Positions 3,663 to 25,008 of a stretch of DNA of 25,008 nucleotides are shown here, piece after piece (the stretch's first letter is position 1; the number at the start of each line of letters is the position of its first letter). Position numbers and translations under genes: made by a program. Under the pieces are notes generated by a model. That model did not search any database. It was not told where the DNA came from and was given only the letters and a program-made list of their open reading frames with translations. Source of the DNA: a virus (Duplodnaviria > Caudoviricetes); the IMG/VR virus record IMGVR_UViG_3300027726_000013, positions 1 to 25,008 of that record; one strand, 5' to 3'.

Positions 3663-4610
3663 CTATTTCAAAAACACTTTAAGCTCCGCCTCATCCTCAG
3701 GCAGAAAAACATGACAGTCATTATACTTCTGAATCCAGTCGTCGCTGACAGGAAACTTCCACTTAAAAAAATTATACAAAGATATCTTCTTTTTCTCAGT
3801 ATCTAACAACAAAGATTTTGTGATATAAATAGAAACAACATTATCCCAGTCATATGAGTTGATAAGAATCTCAGATGGTATATATGATGGGAAACATTTG
3901 AAACGTGGGTTACAATTCAGGTTAGGGTTGCGCGTATGATCCTTCAGGATTGTATCCTCTGGTCTGAAAAGCTTGTTGATATAATCAAATATCTCTGTCT
4001 GGTTTTCGCAGAGTGTAGAAAAATCGTTCAATAGCACAAGGTTTTTTTTGCCTTTGAGCAACTCCTTGTATTTATCCGGCATCCTTATCTTTGGTTCTTT
4101 CTGCTTATATATCATGTAATCATATTTTTTTATTGTCTTCTCTTTCAGATACCACATTGGTCTGCCTAGTAGTATTGTGACGCCAGCGTCTATGCCCAGT
4201 AGGTATCCTATTATTTTGAGTGGTATGTAGTATTTTGTGAAACGTGGTTTCGACCTGAAAAACTTAAAATCCTTGTTTGGTACTGCTAATTGTATCTTGT
4301 TATGTCTAGCCAGTTTCTTCATGTAATAAAAAAATGTTATTGTTGTCAGACCACCGAATAAAACTATGTTGTCGTTTTTTATGTGTCTGAAATATTTTTT
4401 GTATTCTTTTTTAGCCGATAAAATGTTTCTCAGGAAACCGTGTTTGTCGTACATGCTCGGTCTTGTTTTTAGGCGTATCACGTTTGCTTCTGAGAAGTTC
4501 TCAAAAAAATCGTTTATGGAGTTGTTACTGCCTATGATGGTATCACCTTTTCTAATATGTGGTATGATGTACCGCCAACCCCCACCCCCATCCAGAAAAT
4601 AATATGTCAT
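3663..4610 (-). CDS. Putative glycosyltransferase, sialyl/polysialyltransferase-like GT-B fold
   Basis: C-terminal ILKDHTRNP...YIPSEIL...VVSIYITKSL resembles the KxHPR / iPaE / S-S/T-L motifs of CMP-sugar transferases; Lys/Phe/Tyr-rich. Confidence 0.55.
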   Translation of the reverse strand: MTYYFLDGGGGWRYIIPHIRKGDTIIGSNNSINDFFENFSEANVIRLKTRPSMYDKHGFLRNILSAKKEYKKYFRHIKNDNIVLFGGLTTITFFYYMKKLARHNKIQLAVPNKDFKFFRSKPRFTKYYIPLKIIGYLLGIDAGVTILLGRPMWYLKEKTIKKYDYMIYKQKEPKIRMPDKYKELLKGKKNLVLLNDFSTLCENQTEIFDYINKLFRPEDTILKDHTRNPNLNCNPRFKCFPSYIPSEILINSYDWDNVVSIYITKSLLLDTEKKKISLYNFFKWKFPVSDDWIQKYNDCHVFLPEDEAELKVFLK

Positions 4611-11509: not shown

Positions 11510-11724
11510 ATTATCTTCCTTGCACCCGCTTTTTGTTGCCAGGGTGTGAGTTGTCCACGTCTATGGTATTTTTGCAGCCATTCCTGTACATCCCGGCGTT
11601 CACCCATCTTTCGGGCATGACGCAGCCTGTCCCCTCTTGTGACCTTGTTATGCCCCTCTGCCAGGTGTTCAGGTACGCCACCGGGGCTTATACGCCCGTG
11701 TTCCATCCAATAAGGTCGTGCCAA
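11506..11724 (-). CDS. Hypothetical basic protein
   Basis: 72 aa; RBS GGTGATGGGG; TTG start. Confidence 0.7.
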   Translation of the reverse strand: MARPYWMEHGRISPGGVPEHLAEGHNKVTRGDRLRHARKMGERRDVQEWLQKYHRRGQLTPWQQKAGARKII

Positions 11725-11739
11725 TCCCCCATCACCCTC

Positions 11740-12171
11740 TCATATCTTGAAACATTCCAATGACGGCAAATCCATTATAAACGATTTTATGCTGTTGATT
11801 ATCTCCAGTTGCCGTTCACGTGCTAGTTTACGCTGTGTTTTAAGGACTGATTGTTCCTGTTCCACCCTTTTCTGATCTGCGCTCAGACGGTTCATACCCT
11901 CAACACGTGGGTACTGGAAAGCCCAGTTGCCAGGGTAGAAACGATAGGGTGATGCATCCGGGTTCTGGTTGCAGATGTTTATCATCTCACGGATGTTCTT
12001 AAGTGCGTTTTCTTGTGTGATTATCTGTTCTGTGAGCTGGTTCTCACGTATACGCTCGTTTTTGAGTGTGATAACCTTTTTTTCTAGTTCATCCATTTTT
12101 TTGCTTTTTTCCAGGTCTAACTCAATTTCTGTTTTGAGTCCTTTCATTATCATGTTTTTTTCGTGTGACAT
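11740..12171 (-). CDS. Coiled-coil hypothetical protein
   Basis: Heptad-rich 143 aa. Confidence 0.75.
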   Translation of the reverse strand: MSHEKNMIMKGLKTEIELDLEKSKKMDELEKKVITLKNERIRENQLTEQIITQENALKNIREMINICNQNPDASPYRFYPGNWAFQYPRVEGMNRLSADQKRVEQEQSVLKTQRKLARERQLEIINSIKSFIMDLPSLECFKI

Positions 12172-12966: not shown

Positions 12967-14358
12967 TTATTTCGCTGCGCCTTCTTTTATCAGTCGTTCC
13001 CCTAACGCCCGTTGTTTCCTTGCTATAGCCATCTCTTGTCTAGTCGGTTTCCTTGTTGTAACCTCGTTTGGTTCTATTTCATCAGGTGTGGGTTCAGGCT
13101 CAGGCTCAGGTTCGATGGGTTCAGGCTCATCTAACATGCCGTCCTCCGGTATGTTAATGTCGTATTCACGGAGCATCTGACGCGCCTCCATGACATCCAC
13201 TAAACCATAAAGACTATAGAGCTGCCCGATAGTGTTCATAAGAAGCGTCTTGTTGGCTATCTCTGTTTTCTCATCTACAAACAGTGGGTTCCAGTATACC
13301 TCATAACGCCAGATGCTTTCGCCTATGAGCAGGTTAAACATCTGATTTATTAATGGACTGATAAAAATGTTTTGTTGCGCCTCAATGCTTTTGTAGTAAT
13401 CCCCTAGTTCTATTTCGTTGCCTGTGAGCTGCCCTGCTTTCTCTCCTATAAGGAACATCATAGGCATGTCCATAGCCGCTGAAAGATGTATGTAGAAATG
13501 ATATAGTGCATCATGTGGGCTGGGACTAGCGGGGTTGAGCAGCTGGAATAATGTGTCTTTGAAACCAGCGAAACCAACTTTAAGCTCCCTTTTCTTGATT
13601 TGTTCTAGGACTTTGAATGCGTCATCAACCTTTTTCTGGTTGACGTTATCTGATGTGTTTATCGTTGGGAATGGATGTCCAAACATGACTAGGTTGTCGT
13701 TTAGGCTTGTGGTGGCATCGTTGTCTGCTTTGATGCTTTTACATGCTACCTCGAGTGGACTTATGCTGAACGGGTTGTCGCCATCATAGTAGAAGCCTAT
13801 GTGTCCTATCCTGCTGCTGTGTATCATTATGGTCTGTATACCGTTTTTGTATTTCCAGTATTCAACCTCTGTCTTGTTTTTGTTTAGTTGGTAGCCGATT
13901 ATCTGCGTTGGGTCTATGCATCGTATATCTATTAGTTTACCGTTTAGTGGCTGTTGTGGTTCTTTGCTGCCGGCGCAGATGTATTCTATCCATCCATTAC
14001 CATAAATCAAAGCGTCTTTTACGGCTTGTGTGAGTTTGCGTTTAACCTGGTTCCGGGTTATGAAATCGTTTAATTGATTTGTGATATTTTCTGGTATGGT
14101 CTCTCCATCGATGGGACTGTCTATCTCAAACCAGTTGTATATTAGGTCACGTGATCGTTTGTTCACGCCTTTGAATATGATTTCGTTACCATAGTACGCA
14201 CGTTTCTTATCCTCTGCTGTGAGGTTTTCTTGAAATGTAAGTCCCCACAACCAGCTTGTCTGATTCCATGTTATGCCACGCATGATATCTGCGCTGCTGC
14301 GTACAGTCTCTTTTTGTTCTATGGTTTTGTTGCGTCTGAGAAACTTTGGTATTTCCAT
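12967..14358 (-). CDS. Portal protein
   Basis: 463 aa between terL and gp7; DALIYGNGW, SPLE, AAMDMPMMFLIGEKAGQLTG...DYY, VYWNPL motifs. Confidence 0.88.
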   Translation of the reverse strand: MEIPKFLRRNKTIEQKETVRSSADIMRGITWNQTSWLWGLTFQENLTAEDKKRAYYGNEIIFKGVNKRSRDLIYNWFEIDSPIDGETIPENITNQLNDFITRNQVKRKLTQAVKDALIYGNGWIEYICAGSKEPQQPLNGKLIDIRCIDPTQIIGYQLNKNKTEVEYWKYKNGIQTIMIHSSRIGHIGFYYDGDNPFSISPLEVACKSIKADNDATTSLNDNLVMFGHPFPTINTSDNVNQKKVDDAFKVLEQIKKRELKVGFAGFKDTLFQLLNPASPSPHDALYHFYIHLSAAMDMPMMFLIGEKAGQLTGNEIELGDYYKSIEAQQNIFISPLINQMFNLLIGESIWRYEVYWNPLFVDEKTEIANKTLLMNTIGQLYSLYGLVDVMEARQMLREYDINIPEDGMLDEPEPIEPEPEPEPTPDEIEPNEVTTRKPTRQEMAIARKQRALGERLIKEGAAK

Positions 14359-14760: not shown

Positions 14761-15927
14761 TCATCCTATTTTGAAGTATGTATCCTGTCGTTTGCCTAGA
14801 TGTGTGTACAGGGCGTAACGCAGGGCGTCCATAGCATGGTCGTTGAACTTCACTGGTTCATCGAGTACATGCCCGTCCTTGTCCTCTTTGTATTTGTATC
14901 CACCTATCTCTTTGAGGGTGTTGATACTATCACGTGTGATATGTAGTGGGTGTCGTTTCACGAAGTCTATCCCGTCTGTAACCTCTTTATCTGACGGCAT
15001 GCAGACATAGCCTGCGTTGCATATCTCCTCTATGCGTGCTGGTTCTGCACTGTCAGCGTAGATGAGGCTGCCTGGTGGTATTAGGTGTTTAAGCCTGTTT
15101 ATGAGGTCTTGGTTCGTTAGTTTGGATTCGTAGAGCAACTCACGTACATAGGGTACGGTGTCTTTCATGTTTATTTCTATGAGCGCTGACGGGTTGTTAA
15201 AACCAAAATCCAGCCCGTAGAATGTTTCATCTAGGTTGTCTGGTGTGTTGTCAACATGTTTGTAGTTGCTGTATATGATGTTGGTCAGTACACCCCATTC
15301 GCCGAGACAATAAATCTTATAATAATTTTGATCCTGATGTATTAAGTCTTCTAGTTGGTCGATGTATTCTTTTGTGAGAAAAGGGTTGTCTTTGTATGTG
15401 CTTTGGTGATATGCTATGTCCTCCCGTTTTCCCTCTATTAGTTCCGTGTATATCCAGTTTAGTTTACTTATCGGGTTGCATGTGAGAAACATCTGGTTGA
15501 TGACTGTGTTGGTGCGTCTGAGCCTGAGATTCAGTTGTCGGAAGTCATCGATGTTTATCTCCGTAGCTTCCTCAATCCATATGTAGTTGAACTCAGCGCT
15601 TTTTATTTTCTCTGGCTCATCCAGGCTTTTGAATAATAGTTCCGTACCGTTCTGTAGTGTTATTATCAGCTCTGATTTGTTCAGGTTATGTGGTAGGTTG
15701 TATTCCCGTAGCAAATCAGTTATTAGTTTGAAAGCGGTTATCCTCAAGCTAGGCAGGGTTTTTCTTGTTATGAGAAAGCGTTTATTTGGTTCGTTGTACG
15801 CCTTGCTCAGTATCCATTGTGCTGTGCTGTAGCTCTTGCTGCTACCCGCTCCGCCTACCAGTAGGTTAATTCTCTTGTTTGTCTGGTTCAGCCATTTTAT
15901 TAGGTTTGTTACTTTTACTTGTGTCAT
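14761..15927 (-). CDS. terL: Terminase large subunit (PBSX/SPP1-like)
   Basis: Walker A GGAGSSKS, Walker B IWIEEATE, coupling motif TCNP, STYKDNPFL, RNase H GLDFGFNNP, ADSAEP, NDHAMDALRYA. Confidence 0.97.
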   Translation of the reverse strand: MTQVKVTNLIKWLNQTNKRINLLVGGAGSSKSYSTAQWILSKAYNEPNKRFLITRKTLPSLRITAFKLITDLLREYNLPHNLNKSELIITLQNGTELLFKSLDEPEKIKSAEFNYIWIEEATEINIDDFRQLNLRLRRTNTVINQMFLTCNPISKLNWIYTELIEGKREDIAYHQSTYKDNPFLTKEYIDQLEDLIHQDQNYYKIYCLGEWGVLTNIIYSNYKHVDNTPDNLDETFYGLDFGFNNPSALIEINMKDTVPYVRELLYESKLTNQDLINRLKHLIPPGSLIYADSAEPARIEEICNAGYVCMPSDKEVTDGIDFVKRHPLHITRDSINTLKEIGGYKYKEDKDGHVLDEPVKFNDHAMDALRYALYTHLGKRQDTYFKIG

Positions 15928-16288
15928 CTATTAACACGAACTCTATTTTATTGTCTATGTTGCCGGTGTGTTCCATTTTTATCTCTTGCCTGTCACCCCA
16001 TGCGTCTCTGTTCATATGTGCGAGTAACCATTTAGCTATCTCTGGGTTCTTTTTTGATGCATCCCATAAAACATTGTTTAATTCTAGTTCTACTTCGGCT
16101 CGTAGTTCTTTGATTGTCTGTAAAAAAAGTAAAAAATCTGGTTCTCCTTTTTCTCCTCTTTGCATCCAGTTGTGGAGTGTTTGTCTGCTGATTCCTACTG
16201 CTTGTGCTGCTGTTTCGAATGTCGCCCCGTTTTTGAGGTTTTTGTATATGACTTTTGCTATTTCGGGTGTTAGTTTACAGTCTGCCAT
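15866..16288 (-). CDS. terS: Terminase small subunit (HTH)
   Basis: HTH AAQAVGISRQTLHNW, AKWLL...WGDRQEIKMEHTG tail; overlaps terL start. Confidence 0.85.
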   Translation of the reverse strand: MADCKLTPEIAKVIYKNLKNGATFETAAQAVGISRQTLHNWMQRGEKGEPDFLLFLQTIKELRAEVELELNNVLWDASKKNPEIAKWLLAHMNRDAWGDRQEIKMEHTGNIDNKIEFVLIDDTSKSNKPNKMAEPDKQEN

Positions 16289-16291
16289 TTT

Positions 16292-16402
16292 TTATACACT
16301 ACCGTTCATTATCAGGTCTTTATGTTTTTGTAGCCGTCCGTAGCCGTAGTACCAGTCATAGAACTTTTGTTCGATGTCGTATTCAGAAGGTTGTTTTTTC
16401 AT
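16292..16402 (-). CDS. Small hypothetical protein (36 aa), probably leaderless first gene of late operon
   Basis: MKKQPSEYDIEQKFYDWYYGYGRLQKHKDLIMNGSV*; ATG about 25 nt downstream of a TATA box. Confidence 0.6.
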   Translation of the reverse strand: MKKQPSEYDIEQKFYDWYYGYGRLQKHKDLIMNGSV

Positions 16403-16417
16403 AATATGTAACCTTTT

Positions 16418-16445
16418 TGTTGAAGGTTTTATATATGTTTCAACA
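16418..16445 (-). promoter_or_regulatory. Archaeal-type late promoter (BRE + TATA) flanked by an inverted repeat
   Basis: TGTTGAA-ACATATATAAAACC-TTCAACA on minus strand. Confidence 0.65.
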
Positions 16446-16478
16446 TTTAGTTTCCGTCAACGCTTTTAGTTAAAAAGG

Positions 16479-16582
16479 GTTGATATGATGCCGCCGTGAA
16501 TCAACATAACAAGTGATCTGCCTATATAGGACTTGTATCGTATTGGATTGAAAAAGTTTAATCACGGTTTCGGCATATCAAC
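16479..16582 (-). other. Canonical bulge-helix-bulge RNA motif (candidate 81-nt intron or circularised RNA, 16488-16568)
   Basis: GUUGAUAU-GCCG-AAA-CCGUGA...UCACGG-CGGC-AUC-AUAUCAAC: 8-bp, 4-bp and 6-bp helices with a 3-nt bulge 3' of the central helix on each strand. Confidence 0.6.
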
Positions 16583-16729
16583 ACGGCGTATTCGTTCACC
16601 TAGTTCTTTTATGTGTTTTATGCTGATATGGTCTAGTTTTTTGTTTAGTAGTTCGGTGTTATGTCTTATTTTATCGTCATGTGTTATGTTGTCTTCTGTC
16701 ATAATGATTGTAATGTGCCCACCATCCAT
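16562..16729 (-). CDS. Small hypothetical protein (55 aa; start uncertain, alternative ATG at 16702)
   Basis: MDGGHITIIMTEDNITHDDKIRHNTELLNKKLDHISIKHIKELGERIRRVDMPKP*; its stop lies inside the BHB-flanked segment. Confidence 0.5.
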   Translation of the reverse strand: MDGGHITIIMTEDNITHDDKIRHNTELLNKKLDHISIKHIKELGERIRRVDMPKP

Positions 16730-16807
16730 CCCCCTCGTTTGCTCGAGTCGCCTTTAGTTTAATCTATATTCTGAGAACTTGTCCTCATTAATAATATACT
16801 AACTGAT

Positions 16808-16824
16808 GGTATTTAAATGTTTCC
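16808..16824 (-). promoter_or_regulatory. Archaeal-type promoter (BRE + TATA)
   Basis: GGAAACATTTAAATACC, same GAAACATWTA pattern as the late promoter. Confidence 0.55.
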
Positions 16825-16840
16825 AATATACTACCAATAG

Positions 16841-17056
16841 TTATTGTTTTTTTAACTGCAGTTTTTGGATTTCTTTCTTTATCTCGTATTTTTCTTGTTT
16901 CCAGTTTGGTCTGCCGTCTGCGTATCTTTTCATGTGTTCTTCGAAGTCTGTTGTGCCTAGCTGGTTTTTGTCTTCTTTTCTTTTTATTATCCATAGACAG
17001 TCTTCGCAATAGCATCCTTTTTTTATTTTTGTTTTACATCTGTTGCATCTTCTAAT
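16841..17056 (-). CDS. Zinc-finger protein (71 aa) with non-canonical ATT (or ATA) start
   Basis: Frame reads IRRCNRCKTKIKKGCYCEDCLWIIKRKEDKNQLGTTDFEEHMKRYADGRPNWKQEKYEIKKEIQKLQLKKQ*; no ATG/GTG/TTG between the upstream TAA and the Cys motifs. Confidence 0.6.
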   Translation of the reverse strand: MRRCNRCKTKIKKGCYCEDCLWIIKRKEDKNQLGTTDFEEHMKRYADGRPNWKQEKYEIKKEIQKLQLKKQ

Positions 17057-17114
17057 ATGTATCCATCCCCCTTATATGTTTTATAAGTAAACTATAAATA
17101 ACCCTTTAGATAGT

Positions 17115-17420
17115 TTACCATTGTATCAGTTTCATCTTTTTGTCTTCAATGATCCACGTACCGAACTCATGAAGTTCACCTTCGTTGTATCCGTCTCTGG
17201 TTTTGCCTGTCTGATGGAATCCTTCGACACGATAACCACTATGTTGTAGTCCTGGGAATGCTACGAATATGAAGTTTAGACGCCATTCTTTGTTTGTCTT
17301 AACATCTCTTAGTATCATCTCATGGTGTTTGTTTTCCAGATACTGTAGGTAGTCGTCCATCTCCTGTTTGTCGTAGAACTCAAGATGTATCTCATCATAT
17401 TGTGGTTTTGGTCTGTTCAT
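17115..17420 (-). CDS. Hypothetical protein
   Basis: 101 aa, RBS GGGGTGGA. Confidence 0.75.
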   Translation of the reverse strand: MNRPKPQYDEIHLEFYDKQEMDDYLQYLENKHHEMILRDVKTNKEWRLNFIFVAFPGLQHSGYRVEGFHQTGKTRDGYNEGELHEFGTWIIEDKKMKLIQW

Positions 17421-18960: not shown

Positions 18961-19061
18961 CGTTTCATCTCCCTCCGAGCAACAACCCAAATCCAAAACC
19001 ACATCAGACAACACCCCAGAATAAAACCAGATATGACCAACAAATCACTACAAACTGACAT
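18957..19061 (-). CDS. Single-pass membrane peptide (34 aa)
   Basis: MSVCSDLLVISGFILGCCLMWFWIWVVARREMKR*; RBS GGGGAG inside the endonuclease 3' end. Confidence 0.6.
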   Translation of the reverse strand: MSVCSDLLVISGFILGCCLMWFWIWVVARREMKR

Positions 19062-19491
19062 AATCAACTCCCCTGTGATTTAAAATTTTCATTTCTCGTT
19101 CTATTTCTTGTTTGCGTTTTTTATCAATTTCAGATGTCCAACGACCAGATGTTTTATTGCATATCTCTAAAAATTCCATAGTTAATTCTGCTTGTCTTTT
19201 TTTATTTTTAAGATGAGGTAATATTTTAGGTAAAACATATCTCATTCCATTATGATGTGTTCGCCAAAGCCATTGCTTTTTTTTACGGGTTTTATGAAAT
19301 ATATTGCCATTAAATTTTACTTCAGTAATTTTTCCATAGCCCGTACATTCGAGAATCCAATCTAATATTCCTTTATTTATACTACTTACTCCTAAAGAAA
19401 TATTATGATGCCCGTCTTTGCTTTTAGTTAAACTAATACAGCCATCCGCATCAATATAACCCGCTAAATAACTCCATTCTAATTCATTCAT
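19048..19491 (-). CDS. Single-motif LAGLIDADG homing endonuclease (free-standing)
   Basis: YLAGYIDADGCISL, GYGKI, ILPHLKNKKRQAEL; RBS GAGGT before MNELEW (alternative start 19503); visibly more AT-rich than flanks. Confidence 0.9.
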   Translation of the reverse strand: MNELEWSYLAGYIDADGCISLTKSKDGHHNISLGVSSINKGILDWILECTGYGKITEVKFNGNIFHKTRKKKQWLWRTHHNGMRYVLPKILPHLKNKKRQAELTMEFLEICNKTSGRWTSEIDKKRKQEIEREMKILNHRGVDYVSL

Positions 19492-19499
19492 AAAATACC

Positions 19500-20306
19500 T
19501 CATAATGAAACATGAACATCACCACGATTCGGGATTATCACAAGTTTAATCACACCAATATCAGTCGGCGGGAGCATCCATTTCTCAACATACGAACTAG
19601 TATCCTCCGTGTAACCCCGCATAAAACTACCTGTGACACCCAACACCTTCTTCTTCTGTTTGATATGCACCTTGTTATCACCATATAACTGCGTCTTAAT
19701 CTCAGATGCCTTGATGTGCGCATGTGCTATAAGATAAATATCGGCGTTAACATACCCTATCAGATCCTCTAACCAATTTATTTTATTGCCACCTTTACGT
19801 CCACCTACACGACCATGCATACTAAATATGTCAAAGGCGTTCTTCTCGTTGCTCCCCTCACGGGCAAACGTAAGACGTATCAACGCAGAGTCTTCTAAGA
19901 GTTTCACACCCAACTCCTTCTCAAACTCATGCATCACATCAAAATGGTAGTTCAGCCGGATTTTTTCTTCATGATTACCCCTGTGCATCCCCAGACACTT
20001 GTCTCTGATTGGTCTTAGAATATTTATCGCATCATATACCTGCATCGGCACACAATTACTCAAATCCTGCAGATACTTAGTTTCAATCGTAGCCGGGTCA
20101 AACCGTTTATCCGTATAATTTATGCAGTCCACATAATCACCCATCCCTATCCAATAACAATTCGGCTTATCCTTTATCCATTGCACCATATCCTTTAACT
20201 TCTGCCGTTCACACCCCTTGTTGCCGATATGTGAATCGCCTAAGGGTACTATGCTGAACTCATCCAACCTGCTTTTATACGGTATCTTCACCCATTCTGT
20301 CTTCAT
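19500..20306 (-). CDS. Calcineurin-like metallophosphoesterase
   Basis: GDSH, GDYVD, GNHE, HG and AHAH metal-binding motifs. Confidence 0.9.
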   Translation of the reverse strand: MKTEWVKIPYKSRLDEFSIVPLGDSHIGNKGCERQKLKDMVQWIKDKPNCYWIGMGDYVDCINYTDKRFDPATIETKYLQDLSNCVPMQVYDAINILRPIRDKCLGMHRGNHEEKIRLNYHFDVMHEFEKELGVKLLEDSALIRLTFAREGSNEKNAFDIFSMHGRVGGRKGGNKINWLEDLIGYVNADIYLIAHAHIKASEIKTQLYGDNKVHIKQKKKVLGVTGSFMRGYTEDTSSYVEKWMLPPTDIGVIKLVIIPNRGDVHVSL

Positions 20307-24964: not shown

Positions 24965-25008
24965 CCCCATTGTTTGTTCTGTAACATGTTACAGAACAAA
25001 CAATGGGG
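24965..25008. repeat. Perfect 44-bp palindrome with no spacer, extending to the window end
   Basis: CCCCATTGTTTGTTCTGTAACA|TGTTACAGAACAAACAATGGGG, axis between 24986 and 24987. Confidence 0.95.

Follow-up and report, generated by a model that had tools for sequence, protein, structure and literature searches.

Organization of the locus

The window (the whole stretch analysed, 25,008 nucleotides, positions 1 to 25,008 of IMG/VR record IMGVR_UViG_3300027726_000013) is a tailed-virus genome with mostly minus-strand genes, among which PHROG and Pfam identify terminase, portal and tail-tube proteins, and is identical over the parts compared to IMGVR_UViG_3300027792_000041. Ahead of the packaging genes lie a small cysteine-rich gene and a second gene, here termed the small gene, whose 3′ end is embedded in a 104-nt stem (Table 1). 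The small gene has no match in Pfam or PHROG; it looks real from its three homologues in our protein collection, P0002 (80%), P0021 (67%) and the weak P0020. Two related sequences inform the comparison: L048, a 1632-base metagenome contig that keeps the TATA box, leader, stop position and U-tract, and L132, a more distant virus (56% identity to the window in capsid, 52% in portal) that encodes P0020.

In the window, the zinc-finger-like gene lacks an ATG, GTG or TTG start codon; it probably uses an ATT behind a G-rich stretch, found at the matching place in the window and L048 genes (L048:1100-1342). Two TATA-like boxes, P1 and P2, are taken by us as promoters from the archaeal TATA consensus, and the transcribed strand was assigned from these boxes together with the genes. 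The last 60-70 nt of the leader are almost unchanged in L048. An eight-base direct repeat (16757-16764 and 16556-16563, minus strand) flanks the small gene in both window and L048, and a 7-bp inverted repeat (16421-16447) brackets P2, which is also plausible as a plus-strand promoter directed antisense into the motif described below. Further upstream, a free-standing LAGLIDADG endonuclease gene (19048-19503, minus strand) overlaps the stop of a phosphoesterase-like gene; a candidate motif bracketing it (19010-19499) folds at −1.5 kcal/mol and is not credible. The end of the window (24965-25008) is a perfect 44-base palindrome.

Table 1. Features of the window, and motifs in two other viral loci (L005, L159); helix positions are given as paired strands and energies in kcal/mol
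Feature	Position	Strand	Remarks
Small cysteine-rich (zinc-finger-like) gene	16841-17056	−	Upstream of small gene; synteny marker
TATA-like box P1	16810-16817	−	Predicted promoter of the small gene's transcript; identical in L048
Predicted leader	16703-16789	−	Transcription start inferred from TATA spacing
Small gene	16562-16729	−	55 aa, or 46 aa from ATG at 16702
Motif 5′ strand (h, H, first bulge, h′)	16562-16582	−	Predicted cut between 16569 and 16568
Motif 3′ strand (h′, H, second bulge, h)	16479-16499	−	Predicted cut between 16488 and 16487
Helix h	16582-16575 with 16486-16479	−	8 bp
Central helix H	16574-16571 with 16493-16490	−	4 bp
Bulges	16570-16568 and 16489-16487	−	Each 3′ of central helix
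Helix h′	16567-16562 with 16499-16494	−	6 bp
Predicted intron, predicted circle	16488-16568	−	81 nt; from geometry, 96-nt counterpart in L132
U-tract in intron loop	16551-16555	−	5 T in window; 6 in L048, 7 in L132
Ten-base palindromic hairpin, AUAU loop	16521-16530	−	In L132 too, one compensatory pair
Hairpin repeat copy	16451-16482	−	32 bases directly after motif; second U-tract 16476-16472
TATA-like box P2	16427-16436	−	About 25 nt before ATG at 16402 (36-codon frame); predicted packaging-operon promoter
Terminase small subunit	15866-16288	−	PHROG and Pfam matches
Terminase large subunit	14761-15927	−	After small subunit; PHROG and Pfam matches
Portal	12967-14358	−	After large subunit; PHROG and Pfam matches
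L005 motif	4092-4176	+	9/4/8 pairs, 59-nt insert, −26.1, z −4.55; before small terminase gene
L159 motif (G041:C40)	11693-11798	−	12-bp outer helix, 75-nt insert, −22.3

A bulge–helix–bulge motif spans the stop codon

The original prediction had described a canonical bulge–helix–bulge at this site, and its account of the structure was confirmed: all 18 pairs (8+4+6) are Watson–Crick, and the polarity is canonical on the minus strand, the one with real genes, the plus strand presenting the mirror form. If each bulge is cut after its second base, the result is the 81-nt segment that had been proposed (16568-16488), with the stop inside, the stop codon itself (16564-16562) sitting in helix h′. 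The inner stems ascribed to the insert are present in the predicted fold, and ARAGORN calls no tRNA gene in the window, in keeping with the reported absence of a cloverleaf, nor any in L132; Rfam returned nothing near its gathering score.

The motif ranks first in a strict scan of both strands of the window, with 14 flanking pairs against 11 for the runner-up, and with G–U pairs allowed it is the sole strong canonical motif in the window and record bases 25000-38776 (−21.3 versus −14.1 kcal/mol for the next). With inserts of at most 600 nt, 2 of 150 block-shuffled sequences contained a strict motif with an equal number of pairs, while none of 113 attained −21.3 kcal/mol (inserts up to 200 nt; median best −10.9) and nine reached −15 kcal/mol or below.

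Directly after the motif, and overlooked in the original prediction, stands one copy of a short, mobile hairpin repeat with an A-rich tail, whose first four bases form the outer four pairs of h. Stripped of these, the motif scores −13.2 kcal/mol, inside the shuffle range; because the pairs come from the repeat, statistics from a single genome make the evidence look stronger than it is, and the weight of the argument falls on the homologues. The repeat has 56 pattern matches in genome contigs (L073-L128), mostly of archaeal genomes, with copies judged by eye to lie between long direct repeats (L077, L095, L112), after tRNA ends (L089, L097, L107, L113, L124) and inside tRNA genes (L081, L096, L120). 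Two related viruses carry it at differing places (window 16451-16482, minus strand, and L048:18-50), and its exact pattern is absent from five candidate host genomes.

The reduced energy is one argument for seeing in the stem nothing beyond chance, or else an inverted repeat acting at the DNA level (such as operator half-sites or a cruciform close to the packaging genes) and not as RNA. Chance motifs do exist, such as one in L032, which lies inside an intact terminase domain and which we took to be accidental. A 3-4-3 asymmetry, however, would be useless to a duplex binding site, and the syntenic compensatory changes and G–U pair found in L132 (next section) indicate a role as single strand, so we consider this explanation very improbable.

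Conservation and compensatory change in related viruses

L048 retains H, the first bulge and the 5′ strand of h′ exactly and differs at three outer-helix bases; its 3′ strand is unseen because the contig stops 17 bases past the last codon. P0002 and P0021, the latter known from protein only, share the last four residues of the small gene. In L132 the order is a zinc-finger homologue (C-terminal part, E 2.5e-9) upstream, one extra gene, then the small-gene homologue P0020 (weak, pairwise E 0.016), which ends in the motif. A ten-base core of the motif 5′ strand is common to the window, L048 and L132. The L132 frame across it differs (AETGTR, versus MPKP in the window), so its conservation is not explained by constraint on the protein.

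Between window and L132, 27 of 28 cells are paired, with three double changes and one single change (G–C to G–U), whereas a slid-partner control gives 31-61% paired; two complete copies are too few for a shuffle control to become significant (40-60 of 500). The L132 outer helix comprises three A–U pairs exactly three nucleotides past H, one of them via a double change. Covariation in related viruses, which had been suggested as a check on the prediction, thus speaks in its favour, with H, the first bulge and h′ maintained in L132 through compensatory changes. As for the 3-4-3 geometry in homologues, the first bulge is kept in L132 but the second is weakly supported.

Wider searches added few sequences. 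A loose core pattern matches 2 of 35 virus records (the window's own and L132) and its reversed control matches three; with the control as frequent, it is position and pairing, not the pattern alone, that carry weight. Exact cores searched against viral contigs found the window's own record only (1 match; 1 of 14 in a second search), and a two-motif pattern had no match in genome contigs. Model R1 returned only its two training copies from 61 genomes or records, these plus the L048 fragment from 35 sources, and nothing from 151 genomes of the candidate host class. Phage GenBank records gave three weak matches (E 5), zinc-finger queries no new virus, and an apparent homologue in L047 proved spurious.

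Folding of the transcript

In local folds of the window, H and h′ form nearly always and most of h at 85% or above. Since the second bulge can slide, as had been anticipated, the exact 3-4-3 register accounts for 16-19% of the local ensemble. It falls to 1-10% in the naked full transcript, where the motif's outer helix has a competitor in an 11-bp helix within the small gene (16620-16630 with 16573-16583, minus strand), and returns to 16% when the gene is held unpaired, mimicking ribosomes; in these models the competing helix could couple folding of the motif to translation. In the L132 local fold H and h′ form, while the three A–U pairs of h are at 0.2%. By these predictions the 5′ splice bulge is well supported in both window and L132 and the 3′ bulge firmly in the window only.

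These folds bear on an alternative in which the structure is never cut and serves instead as a conserved 3′-end stem-loop (a stabiliser, a termination aid or a protein-binding site), selection acting on the G+C stem and AAA bulge and the window's second bulge and outer helix being partly an accident of the neighbouring repeat. Consistent with this, what every copy keeps is H, the first bulge and h′, the L132 outer helix is not predicted to form, the window owes its outer four pairs to the repeat, and U-tracts are found both within the stem and directly behind it. A plain terminator, on the other hand, would be poorly sited across the last codons and stop, and a scan for bacterial-type intrinsic terminators over 16200-17200, with archaeal U-tract termination outside its coverage, found none. 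The L132 bases that pair precisely three nucleotides past H, including the doubly changed pair, also weigh against an uncut stem, as does the coding-strand canonical polarity, which exceeds its controls in related loci (final section). We judge the uncut stem-loop unlikely, though it is the most serious of the rivals.

The insert and the reading frame

The inserts measure 81 nt in the window and 96 nt in L132, both multiples of three and both containing the stop. Their removal would add seven (window) or four (L132) residues, unlike each other; three homologues end at the unspliced stop, making the unspliced protein end the conserved one. After splicing, the new stop in L132 would precede the next start codon by four bases, and that in the window would lie beyond the second U-tract. 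The insert does not look like an intron needed for rebuilding a protein.

In both inserts a U-tract is followed 14 bases later by a stretch ending in the AUAU-loop hairpin. The hairpin stretches share 13 of 16 bases, a score attained by 6 of 400 shuffles for a feature chosen after viewing both, so that the likeness is suggestive; a comparable palindrome occurs in L159 outside any motif. The U-tract, which the original prediction had not mentioned, is possibly a terminator or a protein-binding site; as the former it tells against splicing, in that transcription could stop there before reaching the 3′ strand. Other roles for the insert were tried and rejected. Each predicted circle has one stop-free frame, as rolling-circle translation would need, yet 45% and 34% of shuffles have one as well, and the frame differs between the window and L132. 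The C-box-like heptamer of a box C/D guide is paired in h′ in the window and absent in L132, a hammerhead consensus is not kept in L132, and neither has Rfam support. Antisense matches to the virus's own genes reach 11 and 10 nt at the longest and are unremarkable.

An intron that is spliced yet neutral, an old entry near the gene end that is tolerated while its circle and the new tail are unimportant, would fit the unconserved codons of the second exon, the occurrence of unrelated motifs at various positions in other viruses, and the insert interiors, which taken whole are not significantly alike (880 of 5,000 shuffles and 26 of 328 natural stretches do as well). It sits less easily with the recurrence of U-tract and palindromic hairpin at equal spacing, and the 81-nt insert encodes no nuclease, unlike introns with homing endonucleases. 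Nor did we find an intron-less form, all four known homologues seeming to keep the insert, and we regard such a passenger as improbable. One candidate intron-less allele, at the start of L048, resembles the exon junction; the match is mostly an independent copy of the repeat, and the rest of the likeness ranks second of 58 repeat copies, so we did not accept it as an allele lacking the insert.

Host and RNA evidence

The terminase finds its best genome matches in two short contigs assigned to Aenigmatarchaeota bins (62-64%), followed by a Methanospirillum and a Thermotogae bin (49%). A repeated domain of the record's large gene matches 26 of 151 genomes in the phylum of a Thermoplasmatales bin, at up to 53% identity and up to 30 matches per genome; two other phyla in this comparison, which covered archaeal phyla only, gave weak single matches in 9 of 151 and 5 of 151. 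A related portal gene occurs in 2 of 197 genomes of the candidate class, once in a provirus-like contig (L159), where it adjoins an integrase-like gene. The repeated-domain and portal matches indirectly suggest an archaeal host, probably of the Thermoplasmatota. The splicing endonuclease (PF01974) is present in all five candidate host-group genomes examined, four of which encode two domains in one frame. Such a two-domain euryarchaeal enzyme, that of A. fulgidus, is described as restricted to canonical motifs (PMC12397907), which counts against splicing in L132 with its outer helix of three A–U pairs.

Parts of the region occur in eight sequencing runs, all available as contigs, including two RNA runs from a single study; four were compared. 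One RNA contig (151 nt, depth 2) spans 16466-16608 without gaps and is unspliced, in agreement with an uncut stem, and a DNA contig spans 16446-16987 without differences. Neither the exon joint nor the circle junction appears at the predicted sites in the two RNA runs (contigs, with depth 2 in one and no cover in the other). The want of cover in the latter run (X5) carries no evidential weight, and RNA depth over the region is too low for ranking its genes. The RNA-library contig represents the unspliced form, possibly as DNA; its depth is too low, and contigs drop rare forms, for it to exclude splicing. Small circles are often lost in library preparation. The proposal of a host-spliced intron is partly supported: covariation favours it and an archaeal host with a splicing endonuclease has indirect support, while cleavage, ligation and the circle are predictions.

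Interpretation as a probable host-spliced intron

We favour, as probable though well short of certain, the view that the stem is a viral intron at the 3′ end of the small gene, spliced by a host endonuclease, whose excision removes the stop codon and releases a circle. By structure the motif is EndA-intron-like, conserved and real, with membership of that class predicted from sequence. In the proposed scheme, transcription from P1 would pass the inner U-tract, and the motif would fold after the ribosome clears the stop, melting the competing in-gene helix. The tRNA-splicing endonuclease of the host would then cut both bulges of read-through transcripts and its ligase join the ends, so that the stop codon would be lost and the 81-nt circle freed. 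Such 3′-end processing might retire or re-tail the small-gene message ahead of the packaging operon, or couple it to the next gene, and would leave behind a circle expected to be stable. Given that the protein is conserved at its unspliced end, and that the few codons of the second exon are not conserved, the step probably acts on the RNA.

EndA splicing is established for tRNA, rRNA, cbf5 and HVO_1309 (PMC7714728, PMC2738675, PMC4090602), and the count given for 2020 names the last two as the only reported substrates outside tRNA and rRNA (PMC7714728). HVO_1309 of Haloferax volcanii carries a 46-nt bulge–helix–bulge intron in its 5′ UTR that is cut by EndA and circularised (PMC7714728). The viral insert resembles it as a short, motif-bounded non-tRNA intron whose removal rebuilds no protein, but is predicted rather than experimentally shown, viral rather than cellular, and at a 3′ end, where its 81 and 96 nt span the stop. 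The cbf5 introns of Crenarchaeota (16-44 nt, often with relaxed motifs) split a catalytic codon (PMC2738675). They likewise represent an EndA-type intron in mRNA, with the cut placed between bulge bases two and three, but must be removed to make the protein (PMC2738675), whereas the virus conserves its unspliced product and excision restores no conserved split frame.

Archaeal tRNA introns and pre-rRNA stems share the 3-4-3 geometry and polarity (PMC4090602, PMC7714728); neither tRNA nor rRNA surrounds the viral motif, and were the exons of the window joined, the remaining stem would have a 7-nt loop. Bulge–helix–bulge ends also occur in mobile archaeal rRNA introns that carry homing endonucleases (PMC2738675), and this virus has a LAGLIDADG gene, but one that lies 2.5 kb from the insert. 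In searches of mostly open-access full texts we found no report of a bulge–helix–bulge intron in a viral non-tRNA transcript. Were the host-spliced intron borne out, viruses would be using the tRNA splicing of their hosts to control genes and would be producing circular RNAs, and gene ends called from DNA could be wrong in such viruses. The window, with its canonical motif, and L132, with its weak outer helix, would form a natural pair for probing the outer-helix need of the two-domain enzyme.

Similar motifs near terminase genes of other viruses

We scanned 34 terminase loci, one per near-identical group and with very short ones excluded. At or below −16 kcal/mol there are nine canonical motifs on the coding strand (eight without the window), one mirrored and two canonical but antisense, a bias towards coding strand and canonical polarity that is suggestive. 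At or below −20 kcal/mol, the 42 kb upstream of the large terminase gene hold three motifs (one being the window's) and the other 240 kb two; this positional trend is not significant without the window (p about 0.1, an estimate).

L005, a complete 47-kb virus, has its motif in a 72-codon cysteine-containing frame between replication and terminase genes. Insert removal there would shift the frame, and the motif has no homologue in 19 other records. The first gene of a provirus-like operon in L159 has the motif in its leader, some 670 nt before the small terminase gene; the motif's h′ has only 3 bp and a competing hairpin appears in the minimum-energy fold. Both are unrelated in sequence to the motif of the window. 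In L009, a further motif and the beginning of the terminase match overlap. Four viruses with three unrelated sequences are the basis for a broader and tentative idea, doubtful on present evidence, that tailed viruses infecting uncultured archaea repeatedly place a host-cut tRNA-type motif ahead of the packaging operon as a step in gene expression, which would delete a stop, couple or retire a message and yield a conserved small circular RNA. Two other loci, with no tRNA called in either, carry strong coding-strand canonical motifs downstream of the terminase, in head-gene regions: L011 has one of −20.6 kcal/mol about 5460 nt after the start of the terminase match, and L043 has three (−21.2, −19.1 and −16.2 kcal/mol) about 4880-5400 nt after it.
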